64,000 nt of DNA from an uncultured Gemmatimonadales bacterium. Lineage in GTDB: Bacteria; Gemmatimonadota; Gemmatimonadetes; Gemmatimonadales; GWC2-71-9. Shown here one piece after another: positions 20,519 to 32,783 of the stretch. The stretch is from positions 101,701-165,700 of the forward strand of contig CAVSLY010000011.1 in the NCBI GenBank assembly GCA_963728705.1, written 5' to 3'. Each line of letters opens with the position of its first letter. Within the stretch, counting starts at the first letter, position 1. The position numbers were made by a program, and so were the translations under genes. Under the pieces are notes generated by a model. That model was given only the letters and a program-made list of their open reading frames with translations, ran no database searches and had not been told where the DNA came from.

Positions 20519-20781
20519 GCAAACGTCACGACTCGGCACTCCACCCGGCGCGGCCGGTGTAACTCTCTGAAACCGGAGAAGTTGCCTATTGAAACACCAG
20601 CAGGCTTCTCGGCGATGCGCGGAACACGTGCACGGCGCGGGCGCGGGCGATCATGGTGCGGGCGCAATGCGGACGGCGGTGACGTGAATGGTTCGATGTG
20701 AACAAGGGAGTGAGACGGACGCGATTCTAATGCGCCGCCGAGAGTTTGGGAAGGGGCAGGTGCTCCCGGATGTGCCCCGAT

Positions 20782-21952
20782 TTACGCCGCTGGAACGATG
20801 AGGCGGGTCTGCGGCACACGCGGCGTGACCTCGGGACCGGCCTCGCTCCAGTGCATGTTCACCTCGCTCCGCACGCCGAACTCGCCGGGCAGGTAGATGC
20901 CGGGCTCCACCGAGAACCCGACGCCCGGGACCAGCAGCCGGTCGTCGTGGGTCTCGTAGTCGTCCAGGTGTGGGCCCGAGCCGTGCAGCTCGCGGTCGAT
21001 CGAGTGCCCCGTCCGGTGCACGAACCGCTCGCCGTGGCCGGCCGCCTCCACCACCGCTCGCGCAGCCCGGTCGGCCTCGAACCCCGCGATCGGCCTGCCA
21101 GCCGCCGCCGCCTCGCGCACGGCGGCCACCGCCGCGTCCCGCGCCCCGCGCACCGTCTCCCACACCTGGAGGACCTTGGGCGGCACCCGGCTGCCCGACG
21201 AACCCCATCCACGTCTGGTCGGCGAACACCGTGGTCCGGCTCCGGCCCGCCCAGAGATCGAGCAGCACTACCTCTCCCGAGCGGAGCGTCGCGTCTCGCC
21301 CCGCATGCGGCTCGTAGTGCGGGTTGGCGGAGTTGGGGCCGAAGCCCACGATCGGCAGCGTGTCGAAGACCAGCCCGCGCGCCTCCACCGCCGCCACCAC
21401 CCTGGCCTGCAGCCCCGTCTCGGTGAGCCCCGTGTCACCCTCGCCGACGGCGCGCGCCAGCTCCGCCTGCGCCACCTCCGCCAGCACTTCGGCCGCCGCG
21501 CGGTGGTCCGCCGCCTCCTCGGCCGACCAGCCGGCGGCGAAGCGGCTCACGAGCGGCCCCGACGGCACGATGGTCGCGCCCAGCCGGCGGAGCAGCTCCA
21601 CCACGCCGGCGGGCACCCGGTCCAGGTATGGAACGGCATCCTCGGGCGAGATCTCCATCGCGAGCCGCTTCCCCCGGACCACCTGGCCCAGCGCCGCGTG
21701 CAGCTCCTCCCATCGCGCATACGGCAGCACCCGTCCCGGGAAGCCCTCGACGGCCGCCAGCTCGATCCGATGGGCCACCGCGACCGGCTCGCCCTCGCGC
21801 GGAAGCAGCACGAAGAGCCGCCGGGTGTTGAGCCCCGTCAGCTCGAGCACTCGGGTCGCGACCGGGTTGAGGCCGTGGAAGGCGTACAGCAGCCAGCCGT
21901 CCACGCCGGCCGCCGCCAGCGCCTCCTTGAGCGCGCCGGCGTCGGGAATCAC
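20782..21952 (-). pseudogene. M24-family metallopeptidase (Xaa-Pro aminopeptidase-like), one apparent frameshift
   Basis: N-terminal part in ORF 20651..21982, C-terminal catalytic part in ORF 20782..21186 (FVHRTGHSIDRELHGSGPHL..GFSVEPGIYLPGEFGVRSE). Switch near 21186. GTG 21952 overlaps the upstream stop (GTGA); the alternative start is 21982. Confidence 0.7.
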
Positions 21953-22578
21953 TCGTAGACCTCGGCCGCGGCGCTCCGCCACACACAGGCGTCATCGCCC
22001 CGGGAGCGGCAGCGCTCGTGGACCATGGCGCCCTCGAACGCGGTGAGGTAGTGGAGCAGCTCGCCGTAGGCCGAGCCGTAGAAGGCACAGGCGGCGCCAT
22101 CGGGGACGGCGAGGATGGAGAGCGGGTCGGTCATGCGCACTTCGGTCCCCTGGGTCGGGGAGCGGAGCTCCCCGTCGAACACCTGCCGAGCCAGGCGTGC
22201 CGCCGCGCGAAGCGCCACCCGCCGTGCGATGCCCGCCGGCGAGACCCGCGAGAACGTCCGGGCCGACCGGGAGCGCGAGCGGGCCGCGTAGCGCGCCGCG
22301 CGGCGCCCGGCGTCGGCGAAGCACAGCGCCGCATCCGGCCGGCGTCCCACCAGGCGGAGCACGCTCACCACCTCGTCGAGCTCGACGGTGCCGTCGCGCT
22401 CGGCGGTCGCGCGATAGCGCTGGATCTGGGCCGCCACCGTCGGGCTCAGGCCCAGGCGGCGGACGACGATCTCCTCGGCGAGCTCGTCGAGACCGTCCTC
22501 GACCGGTGTGTCGAGGTTGCGGATCGCCTCGAGCAGGCTGAGCGGGAGGAGCGCGGGAACGGCGGCAGGAGTAGGCAC
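21949..22578 (-). CDS. hypothetical protein, C-terminal V4R-like (hydrocarbon-binding) domain
   Basis: Intact 209-aa ORF. The C-terminus CAFYGSAYGELL..EGAMVHERCRSRGDDACVW resembles the V4R Cys pattern. Weak call. Confidence 0.35.
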   Translation of the reverse strand: MPTPAAVPALLPLSLLEAIRNLDTPVEDGLDELAEEIVVRRLGLSPTVAAQIQRYRATAERDGTVELDEVVSVLRLVGRRPDAALCFADAGRRAARYAARSRSRSARTFSRVSPAGIARRVALRAAARLARQVFDGELRSPTQGTEVRMTDPLSILAVPDGAACAFYGSAYGELLHYLTAFEGAMVHERCRSRGDDACVWRSAAAEVYE

Positions 22579-22622
22579 GGAGTTTGTGTCCGGAAGTGTA
22601 GCGGGTCCATTACATTCTTTCC

Positions 22623-23195
22623 ATGGCCGAGCCGACCACCACCGGACGCCCGTTCGACGCCGAGGCGCTCCCGCATCTCGACGCGCTGTACCGCGTGGCG
22701 CTCCGACTCACCGGCGATCCGACGCAGGCGGAAGACCTGGTCCAGGATACGATGCTCAAGGCCTACCGCGCCTGGCACCAGTACCGGCCCGGGACCAACG
22801 CCAAGGGCTGGCTGCTGACGATTCTCCGCAACACCTTCATCAACGACTACCGCCGCCGCAAGCTCGAGCCCGTGGCCACCGACCTGGAGGCTATCGAGCC
22901 GCACGCCATCTACCGGGCCGTCGAGGACGTCGATCCCGAAGGCGCCTTCTTCTCCAAGATCGTCGACGAGAAGGTGCTCGAGGCCATCGACGCCCTCCCT
23001 CCGGATTTCCGCGAGGTGCTGGTGCTGAGCGACATGGAGGGCCTTCGCTACGGCGAGATCGCCGAGGCGCTGAAAGTGCCGGTCGGCACCGTCAAGTCGC
23101 GCCTCTTCCGTGCCCGCCGCCTGCTGCAGGCATCGCTCTACCAGTACGCGGTGGAGACCGGGATCATTCCTCCGCGCGAGGCGCCGCATGAGTGA
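22623..23195 (+). CDS. ECF (sigma-70 family) RNA polymerase sigma factor
   Basis: Region 2 (DLVQDTMLKAYRAW, GWLLTILRNTFIND) and region 4 (LVLSDMEGLRYGEIAEALKVPVGTVKSRLFRAR). Confidence 0.9.
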   Translation: MAEPTTTGRPFDAEALPHLDALYRVALRLTGDPTQAEDLVQDTMLKAYRAWHQYRPGTNAKGWLLTILRNTFINDYRRRKLEPVATDLEAIEPHAIYRAVEDVDPEGAFFSKIVDEKVLEAIDALPPDFREVLVLSDMEGLRYGEIAEALKVPVGTVKSRLFRARRLLQASLYQYAVETGIIPPREAPHE

Positions 23196-23436
23196 GCCGC
23201 TCGATTGTCGCGAGGCGATCGCCCGCCTCCAGGATTACCTCAAGCAGGAGCTGACCCCCGAGCTGGCTGGTGAGTTGCGCGCCCATCTGGAGTATTGCCG
23301 GCCCTGCGAGGGCTACGCCCGCTTCGAGCGCAGCTTTCTCGAGATGCTCGAGGCCCGGGCTCAGCACTGCTGCTGTCCCGACGAGCTTCGGGCACGAGTG
23401 CTCCGCGACCTGCGCATTGAGATGGAGCAGGGCTGA
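23188..23436 (+). CDS. RsrA-like zinc-binding (ZAS) anti-sigma factor
   Basis: ATG 23188 overlaps the sigma stop by 8 nt. 82 aa. H-x3-C-x2-C (HLEYCRPC) plus an upstream Cys and a CCC cluster, the same layout as mycothiol-system anti-sigma-R. Confidence 0.8.
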   Translation: MSEPLDCREAIARLQDYLKQELTPELAGELRAHLEYCRPCEGYARFERSFLEMLEARAQHCCCPDELRARVLRDLRIEMEQG

Positions 23437-23459
23437 CACCGGTCGTCCTGCCGCTGGCG

Positions 23460-24215
23460 GTGCTCGCCGCCGGGGCCGCGGCATTGCTCGCGTGGGGCGC
23501 GCGGAGCTTGACCACCGGCGGCGCGGTCGCGGCCTGGCTGGTCGGAATCGCGGTACTGGTGGGGACGGGTTGGGCGGGCGGCGCGGTGTTGGCCGCCTTT
23601 TTCGTCTCCAGCAGCGGGATCGGCCGGCTGGCGCCCGCACCGGTCGGCCTCGACCCGAAGGGCGAACGCCGCGACCCGTGGCAGGTCGCGGCCAACGGCG
23701 GCCCCGCGGCGCTTGGGGCCCTGCTCGGACTCCACGATGCGTCGCTTGGACTCTGGGTCGTCACCGGGAGCCTGGCCGCCGCCGCCGCCGATAGCTGGGC
23801 CACCGCCGCCGGCGGCTGGAGCCGCACGCCACCGCGCCGGCTGCTTCTGGGCATCGAGCTGGCGCGGGGAATCAGCGGCGGCATGACGGTCGCCGGCACG
23901 CTCGGCGCGGCGGTGGGCGCGCTGCTCGTGGCCGCCACCGCCGCCGCCGCCGGTGCGGCTCTGGCGCTGCTCCCCGTCGGAACGCTGGTAGGTTTCGTCG
24001 GGATGGTCGCGGACTCCGCCTTGGGTTCCGCCTGGCAGGGGCGCTTCCGCTGCCCCGCCTGCGACGTCGCCAGCGAATGGCGGGTGCATCGGTGCGGCAC
24101 CCGCACCGTGCGGCTGGGAGGGTTGGCATGGCTGGACAACGACGGAGTGAATCTCGCCGCCTCGGCGCTGGGGGCCGTGCTCGCGGGCGTGGCATGGCGC
24201 TGCTGGTCCCGTTGA
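23460..24215 (+). CDS. DUF92/TMEM19-family integral membrane protein
   Basis: TTGGAVAAWLVG..FFVSSS..WQVAANGG..AADSWATAAG..GISGGMTVAGT pattern. Cys-rich insert FRCPAC..HRCG. Start uncertain (GTG 23460). Confidence 0.55.
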   Translation: MLAAGAAALLAWGARSLTTGGAVAAWLVGIAVLVGTGWAGGAVLAAFFVSSSGIGRLAPAPVGLDPKGERRDPWQVAANGGPAALGALLGLHDASLGLWVVTGSLAAAAADSWATAAGGWSRTPPRRLLLGIELARGISGGMTVAGTLGAAVGALLVAATAAAAGAALALLPVGTLVGFVGMVADSALGSAWQGRFRCPACDVASEWRVHRCGTRTVRLGGLAWLDNDGVNLAASALGAVLAGVAWRCWSR

Positions 24216-24616
24216 TCCTGCTGCTGACGGCCTGCAATGGCGACCCCACGGCCCCGCGCACGGGCCAGCCCAGCGGCGGCAACGGGTCGGGGGCAAGCGA
24301 TGGCGGCGGGGCCGGGTCCGAGCTCGTCGGCTCCTGGCAGACCGTGGTCGTGATCCAGGTGCCCGGGGACCTGCAGACCTGGACGACCACCTGGCGGTTC
24401 GACCCCGCGAGGACCTGCCGGCAGACCGTGGTCACCGAGTCGCTCGCCGAGGGCTTCCCCCGCACGACCGAGCGCGCCTGCACCTGGACCACCAGCAGCG
24501 GCGAGGTCGCCATCAGCTTCGTGGGTGGCGGCACCCTGACCTTCGACTTCTCGTTCGCCGCGCTCGACCCCGACCGCCTCGTCCTCGATGGCTTCGAGTA
24601 CCAGCGCCTCGCCTGA
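24194..24616 (+). CDS. small lipoprotein, unknown function
   Basis: ATG 24194 gives MALLVPLILLLTAC (lipobox). 140 aa. Overlaps both neighbours. Confidence 0.55.
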   Translation: MALLVPLILLLTACNGDPTAPRTGQPSGGNGSGASDGGGAGSELVGSWQTVVVIQVPGDLQTWTTTWRFDPARTCRQTVVTESLAEGFPRTTERACTWTTSSGEVAISFVGGGTLTFDFSFAALDPDRLVLDGFEYQRLA

Positions 24617-25832
24617 GCGGCCTGCCCCGGTCGACGTCCTCGTCGTCGGGACCGGCCCTGGCGGCAGCGCCGCCGCCGTGCTCCTCGCGCGAGCGGGCTT
24701 CAGCGTGACGGCGGTGGATCGCGCCGCCTTCCCGCGCGACAAGGCGTGCTCGGAGTACATGAGCCCGGAGGCGGTCCGCCTGCTCGACCGCCTGGGTGTG
24801 GTGCCGGAGCTCGAGGCGGCCGGCGCCGCACCGCTCCACGGAACGCGGGTCATCGCCGCGGGCGGGAGCCGGCTCCATGGCCGGTTCGCCCGAGCCGGCG
24901 TGACGCCCTTCCGGCCGACCGGGCTCTCGCTCGCGCGGCGCCTGCTCGACGACACCCTCGTCGGCGCCGCTCGCGGTGCGGGTGCCACGGTGCTGGAGCG
25001 CACGGCCGTCGAGGCGCTGCTGTACGACCGTGGAGCGGTCGGGGGCGCGGTCGTCCGCGATGCCGATGGGCAGCGCCAGGCCCTTCGGGCGAGGCTCACC
25101 ATCGGCGCCGACGGCCTCCGCTCGCTCGTCGCCCGGCGGATCGGACGCCGCCGGCACGGCCATCCCCGCCGGCTCGCGTTCGTGGCCCACGTCGACGGCG
25201 TCGCCGGCATGGGCGACTCGGCCGAGATGCACGTCGGCCGGCAGGGGTACGTGGGACTCAATCCGATCGGCGGCGGGCGCACCAACGTGGCGCTGGTCGT
25301 CCCGGCCGAGCGTGGGGGCGAGGCGCGCGGCCGCACGGAAGCGTTCTTGCTCGAGGCGCTCCGGGCGTTTCCTGGGCTGCACGAGCGGGTCGCGGCCGGC
25401 GCGCTGGCCCGGCGGGTACTCGCCACCGGACCGTTCGCCGCCTGGTCCGGGCGGGTGACGACCGACGGCGCGGCGCTGGTGGGCGACGCCGCCGACTTCT
25501 TCGATCCGTTCACCGGCGAGGGGATCTACAGCGCGCTTCGCGGCGCCGAACTCCTGGCCGAGGCGGCGGTGCCGGCGCTCGGGCGGCCGGGACCTGTCAC
25601 GGCGGCCGATCTCGCGGGGTACCGCCGGGCCCGGCGGCGGGCGTTCGCCGGGAAGTGGGCGGTCGAGCGGCTCATCGGCTACGGCATGCTGTTCCCCGCC
25701 CTGTTCGACCGCGCGGTGGCGCGGCTGGGGCGGCGCGCCGGCATGGCGGACACGCTGATCGGCGTGACCGGCGACTTCGTGCCCGCGCGCCACGTCCTCA
25801 ATCCGCTCTTCCTCGCGAGGATGGTCCTCTGA
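24588..25832 (+). CDS. geranylgeranyl-reductase-family FAD-dependent oxidoreductase
   Basis: VLVVGTGPGGSAAAVLLARAG, RDKACSEYMSP and GDAADFFDPFTGEGI motifs. Confidence 0.75.
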   Translation: MASSTSASPERPAPVDVLVVGTGPGGSAAAVLLARAGFSVTAVDRAAFPRDKACSEYMSPEAVRLLDRLGVVPELEAAGAAPLHGTRVIAAGGSRLHGRFARAGVTPFRPTGLSLARRLLDDTLVGAARGAGATVLERTAVEALLYDRGAVGGAVVRDADGQRQALRARLTIGADGLRSLVARRIGRRRHGHPRRLAFVAHVDGVAGMGDSAEMHVGRQGYVGLNPIGGGRTNVALVVPAERGGEARGRTEAFLLEALRAFPGLHERVAAGALARRVLATGPFAAWSGRVTTDGAALVGDAADFFDPFTGEGIYSALRGAELLAEAAVPALGRPGPVTAADLAGYRRARRRAFAGKWAVERLIGYGMLFPALFDRAVARLGRRAGMADTLIGVTGDFVPARHVLNPLFLARMVL

Positions 25833-26311
25833 GTCGGCCCGCCGTCGACCCCGCCCGCTTCCGCCAGCTGCTCGGCCGCTTCGCCACCGGAGTCACCATC
25901 CTCACGGTGCGCGACCCGGCGGGTCATCCCGCGGGCATGACCGCGAGCAGCCTGGCCTCGGTGTCGCTGGAGCCGCCGCTGATCTCGGTCTGTGTCGACC
26001 ACACGGCGGACCTGCACGACCTGATCGTCGCGGCGCCCGAGTTCGTGGTGAACATCCTGGAGAGCGGCCAGGAGGAGCTTTCGCGCCGCTTCGCCGACCA
26101 GCACGACGACCGCTTCGAGGGCATCGGCTATCACGCGGGCCCCGACGGTCAGATCTTCCTCGACGGCGCCCTGGCGCACATCGAGTGCGAGCGCTTCGCC
26201 GAGTATCCCGGCGGCGACCACACCATCATCGTCGGGCGCGTCATCGGCGGCGACAGCCGGGACGGCCACCCGCTGCTCTACTACCGCGGCGGTTACGCCG
26301 CCTTCTCGTGA
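25829..26311 (+). CDS. flavin reductase family protein
   Basis: Tail of ORF 24746..26311: FRQLLGRFATGVTILTV..GMTASSLASVSLEPPLISVCV..GDHTIIVGRV. No ATG/GTG near the 5' end, so the start is uncertain; it abuts the upstream stop. Confidence 0.7.
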   Translation: MSRPAVDPARFRQLLGRFATGVTILTVRDPAGHPAGMTASSLASVSLEPPLISVCVDHTADLHDLIVAAPEFVVNILESGQEELSRRFADQHDDRFEGIGYHAGPDGQIFLDGALAHIECERFAEYPGGDHTIIVGRVIGGDSRDGHPLLYYRGGYAAFS

Positions 26312-26316
26312 TCTCC

Positions 26317-27015
26317 ATGGCACCGCTCGCCCCGAGCCCGGTCGGCGTCGAGCTGCTCGACGATCCGGCCGCCGATCCGGCCACGGTCGCCGAGTCGCTC
26401 CGGAACATCGCCCGCGCCAACCGGTGGTTCGGCGGCGCGGCGGCCGTGCGGCACGGACTCGCTCGCGCCCTCGGGGGCGTGTCCCCGGGCACGACGCTCA
26501 CCCTCGCCGACCTCGGCACCGGGCTCGGCGACCTGCCGCGCGCCGCCGTTCGCTGGGCTCCGCGCCGCGGCGTGCGCCTCGTGCCGGTGGGGCTCGAGCG
26601 AAGCCCGGTGGCGGCGCGTCTGGCGCTTGCCGGTGGGCTGCCGTGCGCCGTCGCCTGCGCGGGCGCGCCGCCGTTCCGCGAGAAGTCGGTGGACGTGGTG
26701 CTGGTGAGCCAGGTCGCGCACCACTTGGCCGACGAGTCGACGGTGCGCCTGCTCCAGATGTGCGATCGCCTCGCCCGCCGTGCGGTCATCGTCGCCGACC
26801 TTCGGCGCGGCCCGCTCGGCCCGCTGGTCTTCTGGGTCGGCGCGCGCGCGCTGGGATTCGACGCCGTCACGGTCGCGGATGGCATGACCTCGCTCCGCCG
26901 GGGCTACAGCGCCGGGCGCTTGCGCGGCCTGCTCGCGGCGGCCGGTGTTCGCGGAATCGTCGAGCGGCGTCCGGGGTATCGCCTGGTGGCCACCTGGCGC
27001 CCGGTGGCGGGCTGA
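26317..27015 (+). CDS. class I SAM-dependent methyltransferase
   Basis: ATG 26317. Motif I LADLGTGLGD. VLVSQVAHHL and VIVADLRR. Confidence 0.65.
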   Translation: MAPLAPSPVGVELLDDPAADPATVAESLRNIARANRWFGGAAAVRHGLARALGGVSPGTTLTLADLGTGLGDLPRAAVRWAPRRGVRLVPVGLERSPVAARLALAGGLPCAVACAGAPPFREKSVDVVLVSQVAHHLADESTVRLLQMCDRLARRAVIVADLRRGPLGPLVFWVGARALGFDAVTVADGMTSLRRGYSAGRLRGLLAAAGVRGIVERRPGYRLVATWRPVAG

Positions 27016-27476
27016 TGCAGACCGTCGATCGGACCCGAATACGCGCGCCGCTGGACCGCGTGCTTGCCGCGGCGGTTGACGTGGAGCGCTGGCCGGCGCT
27101 GCTCCCGCATTACCGATGGGTGCGAAAGCTGGAGCGGCGTGGCGACGGCGGGCTGGTGGAGATGGCGGCGTGGCGGCCGTTCGGTCCGCTCAACTATCCC
27201 ACCTGGTGGGTCTCGGAGATGTGGGTGGACCGCGCCGCGCCGGCGGTGCGCTATCGCCACGTGCGGGGAATCACGACCGGCATGGACGTGGTCTGGCGGA
27301 TGGAGGCGGCGGACGGCGGGACCGACGTCACGATCGTTCACGACTGGACCGGGCCGCGCTGGCCCGTCATCGGCGGCCTGGCGGCGACGTGGGTCATCGG
27401 CCCGGTGTTCATCCATGGAATCGCGTCGCGGACGCTGGCGGGCATCCGGCGGGCGGTGGAGGCAGGAGCGGCATGA
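27015..27476 (+). CDS. SRPBCC (polyketide cyclase/dehydrase-like) family protein
   Basis: ATG 27015 overlaps the upstream TGA. 153 aa. RIRAPLDRVLAAAVDVERWPALLPHY is typical of the Bet v1-like lipid-binding fold. Confidence 0.6.
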   Translation: MQTVDRTRIRAPLDRVLAAAVDVERWPALLPHYRWVRKLERRGDGGLVEMAAWRPFGPLNYPTWWVSEMWVDRAAPAVRYRHVRGITTGMDVVWRMEAADGGTDVTIVHDWTGPRWPVIGGLAATWVIGPVFIHGIASRTLAGIRRAVEAGAA

Positions 27477-28720
27477 GCGACGCAAGGCGGGTGGTGATCA
27501 CGGGAATCGGGGCCATCACCCCGATCGGGCTGGGAGTCGACGGGCTGTGGGACGGACTCCGGCGACGCACGTCGGCGGTCCGCTGCATCACGCGGTTCGA
27601 CCCGACCGCGTTCAAGTCGCGCATCGCCGGCGAAGTGCAGGACTTCGTGCCCACCGATCACATCGAGGAGCGGCGGGCGCGCCGGCTGGACCGGTATTCC
27701 CAGTTCACCATCGCGGCGACCCGGATGGCCCTCGCCGACGCCCGGCTCGACCTCGCCCGGGAGGACCCCGATCGGGTCGGCGCGATGATGGGCACCGCCC
27801 TCGGCGGCGTGGCGCACGGGGAGCGGAACTATCACGCGTTCCTCACCGAGGGACCGCGCGCGGTCGACCCGGCCCTCGCCCTCACCGTCTTCGCCGGCGC
27901 GGCGAGCTGCAACATCGCCATCGAGTTCGGCTGCACCGGCCCCAACTCCACCAACGGGATGAGCTGCGCGTCGGGCGCCATCGCCATCGGCGACGGGTTC
28001 CGCGCCATCGTCCGTGGCGACGCCGACATCATGCTCGCCGGCGGCTCCGAGGCCCCGCTGGCGCCGCTCTGCTTCGGCGCCTTCGCCATCATCCGCGCGA
28101 TGTCCACCCGGAACGACGACCCGGGGCACGCCAGCCGGCCGTTCGACGTGGGGCGGGACGGCTTCGTCATGGCCGAAGGCTCGGCGGTGCTGGTGCTCGA
28201 GGAGCGGAGCCGCGCGCTCGCGCGCGGCGCGCCGGTCTACGCCGAGCTCTGCGGCTTCGGCCTGACCAACGACGCCCACCACATGACGGCGCCGCGCCCC
28301 GACGGCAGCCAGGCCGCCCGCGCCATGCGGAACGCGCTGGCCGAGGCCCATGTGGCGCCCGGCGAGGTGGGCTACATCAATGCCCACGGCTCCTCGACAC
28401 CGCTCAACGATTCGACCGAGACCGGGGCCATCCGCCAGGTCTTCGGCGAGCACGCCGACCGGGTGCCGCTGAGCGGCACCAAGGGGTACTACGGCCACGC
28501 GCTCGGCGCGAGCGGCGCCTTCGAGGCCGCGATCTGTGCCCTCGCGTCCCGGCACGGCTGGCTTCCGCCCACGGTGAACCTCGAGACCCCCGATCCCGCC
28601 TGCGACCTTCCGATGGTGACCGGCGACGGGCGGAACCTCTCGCCCGACGTGCTGCTGAGCAACTCGTTCGGCTTCGGGGGGATCAACGCGGCGCTGGTGT
28701 TTCGACGAGCGGACGCCTAG
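27473..28720 (+). CDS. beta-ketoacyl synthase (FabF/KAS-II-like), Cys-His-His triad intact
   Basis: ATG 27473 (ATGA overlap). VVITGIGAITPIG, active-site GMSCASG, DAHHMTAP, INAHGSSTP, and C-terminal NSFGFGGIN. Confidence 0.85.
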   Translation: MSDARRVVITGIGAITPIGLGVDGLWDGLRRRTSAVRCITRFDPTAFKSRIAGEVQDFVPTDHIEERRARRLDRYSQFTIAATRMALADARLDLAREDPDRVGAMMGTALGGVAHGERNYHAFLTEGPRAVDPALALTVFAGAASCNIAIEFGCTGPNSTNGMSCASGAIAIGDGFRAIVRGDADIMLAGGSEAPLAPLCFGAFAIIRAMSTRNDDPGHASRPFDVGRDGFVMAEGSAVLVLEERSRALARGAPVYAELCGFGLTNDAHHMTAPRPDGSQAARAMRNALAEAHVAPGEVGYINAHGSSTPLNDSTETGAIRQVFGEHADRVPLSGTKGYYGHALGASGAFEAAICALASRHGWLPPTVNLETPDPACDLPMVTGDGRNLSPDVLLSNSFGFGGINAALVFRRADA

Positions 28721-28767
28721 ATTCGCGGCCGTCCCTCCCCCCTGCCGACACTACATAAGGATGGCCG

Positions 28768-29455
28768 ATGCCTTCGCTGTTACGCCGGTCCCTCGCGGAA
28801 GCCCTTGGTACTTTCGGGCTGGTCTTCATCGGTGTCGGGTCCGTCGCCGCCAAATACTACCCTGATGCCAATTACGGCCTCTTCGGCATCGCGACAGCCC
28901 ACGCCCTCGTGCTCTCGGTGATGATCACCGCCACCATGGCGATCTCCGGCGGCCACCTCAACCCCGCCGTCACGATCGGCCTGCTCGTCGCCCGCCGGAC
29001 GACGGGGCAGACCGCGGTGGCCTACATCATCGCTCAGCTCGCCGGTGCGGTCCTCGGCGCCCTTGCCGGTGAAGGCGATCTTCCCCCTGGGTGTCACCCG
29101 GCCCATCGCGCTGGGCACGCCGGCCCTCGCGGGCAACATCCAGCTCTCGCAGGCCATCGGGCTCGAGGCTATTCTCACGTTCTTCCTGGTGTCGGCGGTG
29201 TTCGGCACCTGCGTGAACGCGGAGGCGCCGAAGGTCGGCGGGTTCGGTGTGGGGCTCGTGCTGCTGTTCGACATCCTGGTCGGAGGCCCGCTCACCGGGG
29301 CGGCCATGAATCCGGCGCGCGCGTTCGGGCCGGCGCTGGTGGCCGGGCAGTGGGTGGCGCACTCGGTCTACTGGGTGGGGCCGATCGCGGGCGCCGTCGT
29401 CGCGGCGCTGCTGTGGGAGCACGTGCTGCTGCCGAAGCGGGAGCGGGCGGGGTAG
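28768..29455 (+). pseudogene. aqpZ: aquaporin/MIP-family channel, one apparent frameshift
   Basis: First NPA (GGHLNPAVT) lies in ORF 28768..29598 and the second NPA (AAMNPARA) in ORF 29045..29455. Switch near 29065. Confidence 0.8.
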
Positions 29456-29494
29456 GCGGGCGGGGCGGGCGGGGCGGGCGGGGCGGGCGGGGCG
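29456..29494. repeat. G-rich 9-nt tandem repeat (CGGGGCGGG x about 4), G-quadruplex-type motif
   Basis: GCGGG CGGGGCGGG CGGGGCGGG CGGGGCGGG CGGGGCG immediately after the aquaporin stop. More G3-4 runs lie just upstream (29437-29452). Confidence 0.8.
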
Positions 29495-29519
29495 AAGGTG
29501 CTGTGTTGACGCTCCCGCC

Positions 29520-29585
29520 GTCATCCCGAGCGAAGCGAGGGACCTTCTCACCGGGTATCGAGCCCCGAGGGAGGTCCCTCGCTTC
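29520..29585. repeat. palindromic repeat element, copy A (degenerate)
   Basis: GTCATCCCGAGCGAAGCGAGGGACC...GGTCCCTCGCTTC: a 13-bp stem with a ~28-nt loop. The left end matches the copies at 52924, 59115 and 59963. The right terminal arm is missing. Confidence 0.6.
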
Positions 29586-29619
29586 TTTCCAGCAATGATT
29601 CGCCATCGAGAGGAGCGCC

Positions 29620-29772
29620 CTACCGATCGCCCCCGACCGTCCGACCGTCCGCCCGTCCGACCACCTGCTTCACCCTCCCCCACAACACCACCAGATACCC
29701 CCCCAGAATCACCGGCGTCACCACATACGCCGCAATCATGTACCCCGCGTTCTCGGGCGCCTCAGCCAGCAT
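29620..29772 (-). CDS. ccmD: heme exporter protein D (small ORF absent from the ORF track)
   Basis: 50 aa: MLAEAPENAGYMIAAYVVTPVILGGYLVVLWGRVKQVVGRADGRTVGGDR. One TM segment then basic residues. The ATG overlaps the end of ccmC. Position after ccmC is the canonical one. Confidence 0.6.
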   Translation of the reverse strand: MLAEAPENAGYMIAAYVVTPVILGGYLVVLWGRVKQVVGRADGRTVGGDR

Positions 29773-30460
29773 CGGTCGCCTCGTCGCGCGCGTCCTCGGC
29801 CATTCCCAGCCCGTACCGCAAGGTCACCAGCCCGATATAGAGCAGAGTGAACACCGCCATCGACACCAGCAGCGTCCGCAGCATCTCCGGCGGCAGCGAC
29901 GGCGCGCTCGGCTTGAGCACGATCGGCTGCGGGTGGAGCGTCCGGAACAAGTACACGCTCAGGTGGATGAACGGCACGAGCAGCATCCCGAGGATCCCCA
30001 CCACCGCGCTGAAACGCGCCCGCTCGGCCGGATCGTGCACCGAGGCGCGGAGCGCCAGATAGCCGATGAAGAGAAAGAACAGGAACAGGGTCAGTGTGAG
30101 CCGCGCGTCCCAGGTCCACCACGTGCCCCAGATCGGCTTGGCCCAGATCGGCCCGGTCGTCAGCATGACCGCGCTGAACGCGACTCCCACCTCCGCGGAG
30201 GACGCGGCGAACCGGTCGAGCCGGGGGTCGTGCAGCCAGAGATAGAGCGCGCTCGCGACCCCTACCAGAGAGAAGGCGATCAGCGCGCACCACGCCGCGG
30301 GCACGTGCAGGTAGAAGATCTTCTGCGCCATGCCCTGGCGCGCCTCGACCGGGGTATAGGCGAGCGCCAGCAGATAGACCGCCGCCAGTCCCAGGAACGC
30401 CGCCAGGCTGATCCCGAGCCCGCGGCGGGTGATCGCGCGGATCGCGGCGTCCGACGTCAT
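29762..30460 (-). CDS. ccmC: heme exporter protein C
   Basis: WGTWWTWDARL tryptophan-rich motif. 232-aa polytopic membrane protein. Confidence 0.9.
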   Translation of the reverse strand: MTSDAAIRAITRRGLGISLAAFLGLAAVYLLALAYTPVEARQGMAQKIFYLHVPAAWCALIAFSLVGVASALYLWLHDPRLDRFAASSAEVGVAFSAVMLTTGPIWAKPIWGTWWTWDARLTLTLFLFFLFIGYLALRASVHDPAERARFSAVVGILGMLLVPFIHLSVYLFRTLHPQPIVLKPSAPSLPPEMLRTLLVSMAVFTLLYIGLVTLRYGLGMAEDARDEATDAG

Positions 30461-32642: not shown

Positions 32643-32783
32643 CCATCCTCCTTCGGCACCGAGCTATCTCACCACCAGCAGGTGAGACCTCTAGTTTTGC
32701 GGCCCCGGATCGCTCCGGGTGTGCTCTATCGAGAGAATCGACGCCTCGCCGCAGGCTACGTTGCGGCTGCGCCCTCGAGAAAG

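Follow-up and report, generated by a model that had tools for sequence, protein, structure and literature searches.

A conserved Gemmatimonadota operon behind an RsrA-type sigma/anti-sigma pair, proposed to serve a specialised membrane lipid

We analysed a 64,000-nucleotide stretch of DNA (hereafter the window) from an uncultured Gemmatimonadales bacterium (contig CAVSLY010000011.1, positions 101,701 to 165,700), in which an earlier reading of the sequence, here called the original prediction, had placed a translationally coupled operon of nine genes at positions 22623-28720. Our comparison of related loci shows that the invariant unit of this operon is a set of five genes, encoding a FAD flavoprotein (FADox), a flavin reductase, a methyltransferase, an SRPBCC protein and a beta-ketoacyl synthase (KS), whereas a sigma/anti-sigma pair, a DUF92 membrane protein and a lipoprotein vary by lineage. 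In most Gemmatimonadales the genes of an extracytoplasmic function (ECF) sigma factor and of a soluble anti-sigma factor of RsrA type directly precede this core, leaving no space for it to have a promoter of its own. The best explanation is an operon specific to Gemmatimonadota and devoted to a specialised membrane lipid. The reading that we favour, tentatively and with somewhat less than even confidence, is a redox-regulated pathway that would build this lipid on an acyl chain bound to acyl carrier protein (ACP); a phenolic or quinone-like product is our leading guess within it. The operon combines elements of known kinds, namely the operon controlled by an ECF sigma factor with its zinc-binding anti-sigma (ZAS) factor and the small lipid or polyketide tailoring cluster.

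The unit recurs in many Gemmatimonadota of soil. In a scan where each species was represented by a single genome, 289 relatives were confirmed; the best 80 of these loci all come from Gemmatimonadales or Gemmatimonadota, and homologs of the methyltransferase are labelled Gemmatimonadales by their sources. When the window proteins were mapped onto 82 related loci, the same order recurred: a divergent gene for a 209-residue protein, then sigma factor, anti-sigma factor, DUF92, sometimes the lipoprotein, FADox, flavin reductase, methyltransferase, SRPBCC and KS, followed by an aquaporin gene. The whole core, from FADox to KS, is preserved in 74 of the 82 loci. Incomplete loci always lose genes from one end of the cluster and lie on a short contig, a pattern that contig truncation would give. 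The arrangement is conserved far beyond chance, and the quartet of KS, SRPBCC, methyltransferase and geranylgeranyl reductase (GGR)-type flavoprotein, whose failure to co-occur elsewhere would have spoken against the operon, recurs very widely. The evidence for a spread beyond Gemmatimonadota comes from a locus of unassigned taxonomy (L085) and a remote relative in Novosphingobium. Two further remote relatives of the methyltransferase (L086, L091) had no related gene context.

Comparison of distant loci separates core from accessory genes. Among the divergent relatives, with methyltransferases 40-47% identical to that of the window (L003, L084, L085, L093), two have the five-gene core in unchanged order at just 40-43% identity (L003, L093), and two lack DUF92 and the flavin reductase while keeping FADox, methyltransferase, SRPBCC and KS (L084, L085). 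Of the 59 loci spanning the region of the sigma/anti-sigma pair, three lack it (L074, L080 and L081) and the other 56 have it; it is also absent from a Gemmatimonadaceae locus (L089), and another locus (L088) has a zf-HC2 gene alone. The lipoprotein gene is accessory, occurring in only 26 of 68 loci. Because the sigma pair, DUF92 and the lipoprotein are each missing from some loci, the functional core comprises five genes and not nine. The compact, coupled operon of the original prediction thus stands, its boundaries less so, since the aquaporin and the divergent gene also belong to the conserved neighbourhood; the unit is real and probably has ten genes, the aquaporin included. One candidate, an apparent fusion of flavin reductase and methyltransferase (P0132), was discarded: its source, a metagenome-assembled genome (L087), has the cluster genes in pieces, most likely through assembly frameshifts, and such fragments yield artificial fusion proteins in the protein database.

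In the window itself, which has a G+C content of about 70%, the third-position GC frame plot shows unbroken coding on the + strand from about 22600 to 28720, with frame changes at 23190, 23440, 24190, 24590, 25830, 26300, 27010 and 27470, that is, at each predicted junction. Translation and matches to Pfam and NCBIfam agree with this plot in supporting all nine open reading frames and their domains. The predicted distances were also correct: overlaps of 8 nt between the sigma and anti-sigma genes, a gap of 23 nt before DUF92, overlaps of 22, 29 and 4 nt at the next three junctions, and TGATG and ATGA overlaps at the start of the SRPBCC and KS genes. Similar distances are found across the loci, with medians of -7 nt (sigma/anti-sigma), 23 nt (anti-sigma/DUF92), -4 nt (FADox/flavin reductase), -7 nt (flavin reductase/methyltransferase), -1 nt (methyltransferase/SRPBCC) and -4 nt (SRPBCC/KS). 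Scanned for consensus elements, the region 21500-30000 showed no promoter-like site and three terminator-like hairpins where 1.6 are expected by chance. One of these, a weak one at 23583, lies inside DUF92; the others lie past the aquaporin gene (29566-29581, + strand, a consensus match only, with a T-rich tail) and on the minus strand (29973-29956).

Two start codons required revision. The codon at 25829, where the flavin reductase begins, is CTG instead of ATG, GTG or TTG, and there is no canonical in-frame start within 25760-25900. The bases at this junction with FADox are CTGA in 43 loci, GTGA in 20, TTGA in 10 and ATGA in one; the window also has CTGA. With one exception, the closest upstream in-frame canonical start of the CTGA loci lies at a distance of 138-174 nt, and in five loci an in-frame stop rules it out. 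Starts on the downstream side vary in position (6-108 nt), and in many loci, the window among them, using these would cost conserved N-terminal residues. The simplest reading of these sequences is that the flavin reductase would (re-)initiate at CTG. Initiation at CTG within a CTGA overlap supports coupled translation, and the coupling originally proposed is strengthened by the conservation of NTGA overlaps across genomes, those with a CTG start included. Such a widespread CTG start offers a clean natural case for studies of termination-reinitiation coupling. The methyltransferase, for which 26317 had been proposed, probably starts at the GTG at 26308, in a GTGA overlap, rather than at the ATG at 26317, because its homologs are 235 residues long.

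The operon opens with the ECF sigma factor (22623..23195, + strand, 190 aa), in which Sigma70_r2 matched residues 18-80, r4_2 matched residues 116-168 and no further sigma region was matched. It is followed by an anti-sigma factor of 82 aa (23188..23436, + strand) with a zf-HC2 domain and without any hydrophobic stretch. The best NCBIfam matches of the two proteins, SigH_actino (156.9 bits, cutoff 251.55) and RsrA (TIGR03988; 42.9 bits, cutoff 62.5), both fall below their cutoffs. Yet C7, H33, C37 and C40 of the anti-sigma factor are invariant in 58 orthologs, a pattern that we take to be the RsrA arrangement and that bears out the soluble, RsrA-type ZAS factor of the original prediction. By its sequence, the pair is SigR-RsrA-like but outside those actinobacterial equivalogs. 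Like SigR-RsrA and SigH-RshA of Actinobacteria (ECF12-type), it consists of a two-domain ECF sigma factor whose gene overlaps that of a small soluble anti-sigma factor with the zinc/thiol motif C-x25-H-x3-C-x2-C. Unlike them, it occurs in another phylum, has no GGAAT-N18-GTT promoter close to its operon, and leads a biosynthetic operon instead of a thioredoxin/mycothiol regulon.

The SigR-type promoter motif (GGAAY-N17-19-GTT) is absent between 22000 and 29000, upstream of the operon as well as inside it. Instead, 57 distinct upstream regions keep the hexamer [TA]ACATT 5-6 nt ahead of the sigma ATG, represented in the window by TACATT (22611..22616, + strand, 6 nt before the ATG), and no conserved -35 element emerged from them. 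This suggests that the sigma transcript may be leaderless or nearly so and made from a -10-only promoter. Since there is no SigR-type motif and the conserved element resembles a housekeeping -10, it is where the genes lie, and no promoter match, from which we infer that the ECF sigma factor controls its own operon. In the intergenic segment 22580-22622 TAnnnT-like elements lie within a few bases of the start codons of both the sigma gene and the divergent gene, and neither gene shows a leader, which suggests that both may have leaderless mRNAs.

At the other end of the core lies the KS (27473..28720, + strand), with both the N- and C-terminal ketoacyl-synt domains. It passes the fabF equivalog model TIGR03150 marginally, by 12 bits (506.0 for a cutoff of 493.75), and is about 50% identical to the FabF proteins of Thermus, Bacillus and Synechocystis and 43% to that of E. 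coli. The Cys-His-His triad was correctly predicted to be intact, as are the Lys and the gating Phe (aligned to C163, H303, K335, H340 and F400 of E. coli FabF). What distinguishes the enzyme from FabF (KAS II) is the small margin of its score, its position among tailoring enzymes without acpP, and one helix, which reads PALALTVFAGA in four KS of the cluster (the window, L002, L088 and L089), PFF[VI]PMMIxNM in FabF of Thermus, Bacillus and Synechocystis and PFFVPSTIVNM in that of E. coli; this helix lines the acyl/pantetheine tunnel. Neither the window nor about 90 related loci yielded an ACP gene or a second KS, and a tblastn search of the same set found no type III polyketide synthase (PKS). 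The lone KS without ACP or chain-length factor noticed in the window is thus borne out, there and in these loci.

One indication of the chemistry comes from the SRPBCC protein (27015..27476, + strand; Polyketide_cyc). It had been labelled a Bet v1-fold lipid-binding or cyclase protein; the helix-grip fold is upheld, and its closest relatives are more specifically the aromatase/cyclases of type II PKS. A profile of 20 orthologs matches WhiE (E 3e-9), TcmN (4e-7) and ZhuI (1e-3) ahead of the START protein CC1736 (1t17; 7e-3), taken here as Coq10-like, and the AF2 model (pLDDT 88) has TcmN, WhiE and ZhuI as top Foldseek matches (2rer, 3tl1, 3tfz). The equivalents of Trp28 and Tyr35 (Y33 in the latter case) are invariant, whereas the catalytic Arg69 of TcmN and WhiE is replaced by an invariant Met (M69). 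As far as its sequence tells, the protein resembles the aromatase/cyclases of type II PKS (the N-terminal domain of TcmN, WhiE-ORFVI, ZhuI) yet fails one of their defining features. The cluster also differs from theirs in having a single KS of FabF type in place of a minimal PKS of KS-alpha, chain-length factor and ACP.

Fusion to a methyltransferase is a further similarity, TcmN being a cyclase-O-methyltransferase. Single polypeptides joining the methyltransferase and the SRPBCC protein occur in many Gemmatimonadaceae, as dozens of distinct protein clusters, albeit in reversed domain order, with the methyltransferase first. Because the two are so often fused, this is strong evidence that they act on one common substrate. 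The methyltransferase (26308..27015, + strand) is SAM-dependent, belongs to a PRK06202-like family and has only the generic domain matches Methyltransf_11/25; its family motifs are an N-terminal ExLD..DP...ARANRWFGG, plus SQVAHH and DLRR.

The FADox protein (24588..25832, + strand; FAD_binding_3, GG-red-SF) belongs to a clade of GGR, halogenases and PqsL and scores below the cutoff of the GG-red-SF model TIGR02032 (137.6 vs 158.8). Its best solved relatives are halogenases (78 bits; CndH, CmlS, PltA), then PqsL, then archaeal GGR. The three halogenases act on carrier-tethered substrates, and the solved relatives in general use free reduced flavin or take carrier-tethered or aromatic substrates. 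The FAD fingerprint is present (GTGPGG and GDAAD). Residues K52, C54 and E56 are invariant and form an (R/K)xC(G/S)E motif with the GGR-type Cys; they appear to align to RCGEG of Thermoplasma GGR. The YxWxFP motif of GGR is replaced by GYVGLNP. A halogenase reading was rejected, as the WxWxIP motif is missing. The adjacent flavin reductase (25829..26311, + strand) is of the HpaC/HsaB type (Flavin_Reduct, E 2.9e-42), and a dedicated enzyme of this sort fits the use of free reduced flavin by FADox. Domain matches thus agree with the proposed pairing of a GGR-superfamily flavoprotein with its own flavin reductase.

The same flavoprotein could suggest the maturation of a protein-derived quinone cofactor, with FADox acting like LodB, GoxB or QhpG on the upstream lipoprotein as its substrate, which we consider very improbable. 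The models of these three maturases are among the FADox matches, and the lipoprotein gene (24194..24616, + strand, 140 aa, lipobox LLTAC), which has no family match in Pfam or NCBIfam, overlaps the FADox gene by 29 nt. Their scores, however, are far under the family cutoffs, the lipoprotein occurs in a minority of loci, and the scheme has no role for the KS, the methyltransferase or the SRPBCC protein. A LodB/QhpG-type maturase was rejected because the lipoprotein is dispensable.

A more serious, if still unlikely, alternative is that the operon modifies fatty acyl chains. The KS and the methyltransferase would place a methyl branch on the chain, whether at its beta-keto stage or in unsaturated form, FADox and its reductase would reduce or oxygenate it, and the resulting branched, hydroxylated or furan-like fatty acids would guard the membrane under oxidative stress. 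This fits the FabF-like sequence and catalytic residues of the KS, the absence of PKS-specific partner genes from the window and related loci, and the GGR Cys of FADox, for which the GGR superfamily is the best family match. There is also precedent for a ZAS anti-sigma factor over lipid modification. The RpoE-ChrR singlet-oxygen regulon of Rhodobacter includes furan fatty acid genes, and an ECF sigma and ZAS anti-sigma factor there likewise control lipid-modifying enzymes, a methylase and a flavoprotein included; its enzymes, though, are not homologous to those described here, ChrR is larger, with two domains, and the genes are scattered over a regulon rather than gathered in one operon. Likewise, tuberculostearic acid is made by a pair of methyltransferase and FAD-reductase that, as the furan genes, is analogous and not homologous. 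Against fatty acyl modification, the methyltransferase is not of the cyclopropane or mycolic-acid synthase type, the nearest relatives of the SRPBCC protein are aromatase/cyclases, and the closest contexts found for the methyltransferase and FADox families involve type III PKS.

These contexts come from plasmids. Plasmid-borne relatives of the methyltransferase are solely on two Novosphingobium megaplasmids; a plasmid search with FADox matched only an oxidoreductase linked to a nonribosomal peptide synthetase, and one with the SRPBCC protein gave no match. On pSA1 of Novosphingobium resinovorum (L090, 3746-8738) the methyltransferase lies beside a divergent operon of ACP, FabF-like KS, type III PKS and GGR-like flavoprotein; this cluster is unannotated, and a glycosyltransferase and an aminotransferase adjoin it. 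The pSA1 methyltransferase is 34% identical to that of the window over its full length, with ExLD..DP, ARxNRW, SQVAHH and DLxR in common. The similarity of the flavoproteins (30%) is at the level of motifs, with K-x-C-[GS]-E and GYxGL in common. Operons that combine a methyltransferase and a FAD oxidoreductase with a type III PKS are widespread and make O-methylated alkylresorcinols, with apparent C-methylation in one case and ring hydroxylation in that of hierridin (PMC6836626, PMC10896814, PMC8086630). From the motifs common with the pSA1 pair and these known products, the methyltransferase and FADox plausibly act as a tailoring pair on a phenolic lipid, with a ring-forming enzyme that would be different or encoded elsewhere. 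Operons of the hidABC and srsABC type, whose products are methylated, hydroxylated alkylresorcinols and alkylquinones (PMC6836626, PMC10896814), also encode a small methyltransferase and a FAD oxidoreductase with a condensing enzyme, a likeness drawn via the Novosphingobium pair. They differ from the window in their type III PKS, instead of which the window has an SRPBCC protein together with a KS of FabF type, and in that the window has a dedicated flavin reductase.

Another gene hints at isoprenoids. The DUF92 integral membrane protein (23460..24215, + strand; PF01940, E 2.6e-42) belongs to a family that includes the plant phytyl-phosphate kinase. In all Gemmatimonadota versions examined it has an invariant CxxC...HxCG insert in a loop at about residues 197-213, which could be a zinc or redox site. 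The operon might accordingly tailor an isoprenoid or quinone: DUF92 would be a polyprenyl-phosphate kinase, FADox with its reductase would saturate a prenyl chain like MenJ, the methyltransferase would act on the quinone ring, the SRPBCC protein would be a Coq10-like quinone chaperone, and the KS would be a housekeeping fabF hitch-hiking at the 3' end with its own expression. We find this quite unlikely. It fits the DUF92 domain, the GG-red-SF, MenJ and Ubi-OHase family matches and the UbiE/UbiG-like and COQ10 labels given by JGI, and a housekeeping KS could explain why this gene is the most conserved of the cluster (median identity 84%) and is separated from SRPBCC by more than 60 nt in 6 of 74 loci. 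But the distance is at most 10 nt in 58 of the 74, and KS and SRPBCC are adjacent in every complete locus, including the two without DUF92 (L084, L085). Moreover, the KS replaces a helix of three solved FabF proteins, the SRPBCC profile favours aromatase/cyclases by six orders of E-value, and the conserved neighbourhood has no prenyltransferase gene. As to the stress-induced modification of a membrane lipid, quinone or isoprenoid originally suggested, the evidence favours phenolic-lipid-like chemistry over isoprenoid reduction, because the SRPBCC protein is nearest to aromatase/cyclases and the methyltransferase and FADox resemble a pair encoded beside a type III PKS.

In the phenolic-lipid pathway that we propose, oxidation of the anti-sigma thiols would free the sigma factor and raise transcription of the whole unit. 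The KS would lengthen an acyl chain on the housekeeping ACP, and the aromatase/cyclase-like SRPBCC protein would bind the reactive beta-keto product and perhaps cyclise or dehydrate it. FADox, with reduced flavin from its partner reductase, would hydroxylate the product or, less likely, reduce it, and the methyltransferase, fused to SRPBCC in sister lineages, would methylate it. DUF92, the lipoprotein and the aquaporin may serve membrane or periplasmic steps. The product, the weakest step of this scheme, would most likely be a phenolic or quinone-like lipid, methylated and oxygenated, that serves an antioxidant or redox function, by analogy with the alkylresorcinols and alkylquinones of the operons with a type III PKS. 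A bolder form of the proposal, which we regard as decidedly doubtful, is that the FabF-type KS and the SRPBCC protein on housekeeping ACP form a minimal aromatic-lipid synthase that dispenses with chain-length factor, dedicated ACP and type III PKS, with a two-component flavin hydroxylase and a partly fused methyltransferase tailoring its product under a thiol-redox sigma/anti-sigma switch.

Several observations weigh against the phenolic-lipid pathway. The KS, about half identical to bona fide FabF proteins and above the equivalog cutoff, could be a plain enzyme of fatty acid synthesis, and genes for an ACP, a chain-length factor, a ketoreductase and a type III PKS are all lacking from the window and the roughly 90 related loci. 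The SRPBCC protein has a Met at the catalytic Arg position, FADox retains the Cys typical of GGR-type reductases, and the kinship of DUF92 hints at isoprenoids. As for regulation, the sigma pair is entirely missing from some lineages, no SigR-type motif is found around the operon, and the conserved upstream element is of housekeeping appearance. The set had not been matched to a known pathway, and literature searches on Gemmatimonas alkylresorcinols and polyketides and on DUF92/COG1836 likewise yielded no description of the cluster.

The neighbouring genes extend the conserved region on both sides. Downstream, a MIP/aquaporin gene comes next after the KS in 64 loci, the median distance between the two being 46 nt, and is likely a tenth member of the operon. 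In the window it lies at 28768..29455 (+ strand), where the MIP domain matches the N-terminal part only: relative to L004 and L005, a one-base insertion (+1 frameshift) near 29064 splits it over two frames, which reflects either a sequencing error or a pseudogene. Upstream, the divergent gene for the V4R-like 209-aa protein (up209; 21949..22578, minus strand) is present in 60 of the 82 loci, also where the sigma pair is absent. It matches the BchJ/V4R model weakly (E 1.6e-4), with PF02830 in one homolog, and some homologs are named bacteriochlorophyll 4-vinyl reductase by JGI. Its weak Foldseek matches are Bet3/TRAPPC3, H-NOX, the phenol-sensing domains of DmpR, MopR and PoxR, and MJ1460, so that it probably binds a small hydrophobic ligand. 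Residues C164, H187, C190 and C198 are invariant, with a spacing that may match the zinc site of MopR. The gene overlaps and is co-transcribed with that of an M24-family metallopeptidase downstream of it (20651..21952, minus strand, start coordinate approximate; Pfam Peptidase_M24), and these V4R-like and M24 genes also stand together upstream of the cluster in L001, L084, L087, L088 and L089. Further along the window, a c-di-GMP-I riboswitch aptamer was found at 32652-32735 on the minus strand (Rfam RF01051, 47.2 bits for a gathering score of 35).

Gemmatimonadota rank with the most abundant phyla of soil and have barely been studied biochemically. With 289 relatives in a scan of species representatives, the operon belongs to the best conserved of their accessory modules, and it carries a built-in regulatory hypothesis, that of thiol oxidation. 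If the minimal synthase outlined above were true, this phylum would possess a new biosynthetic route of its own to phenolic or quinone lipids. Identifying the product would bring to light a new membrane lipid induced by stress, or a new redox lipid, and could show how a FabF-like enzyme was recruited to specialised metabolism without a carrier protein of its own.

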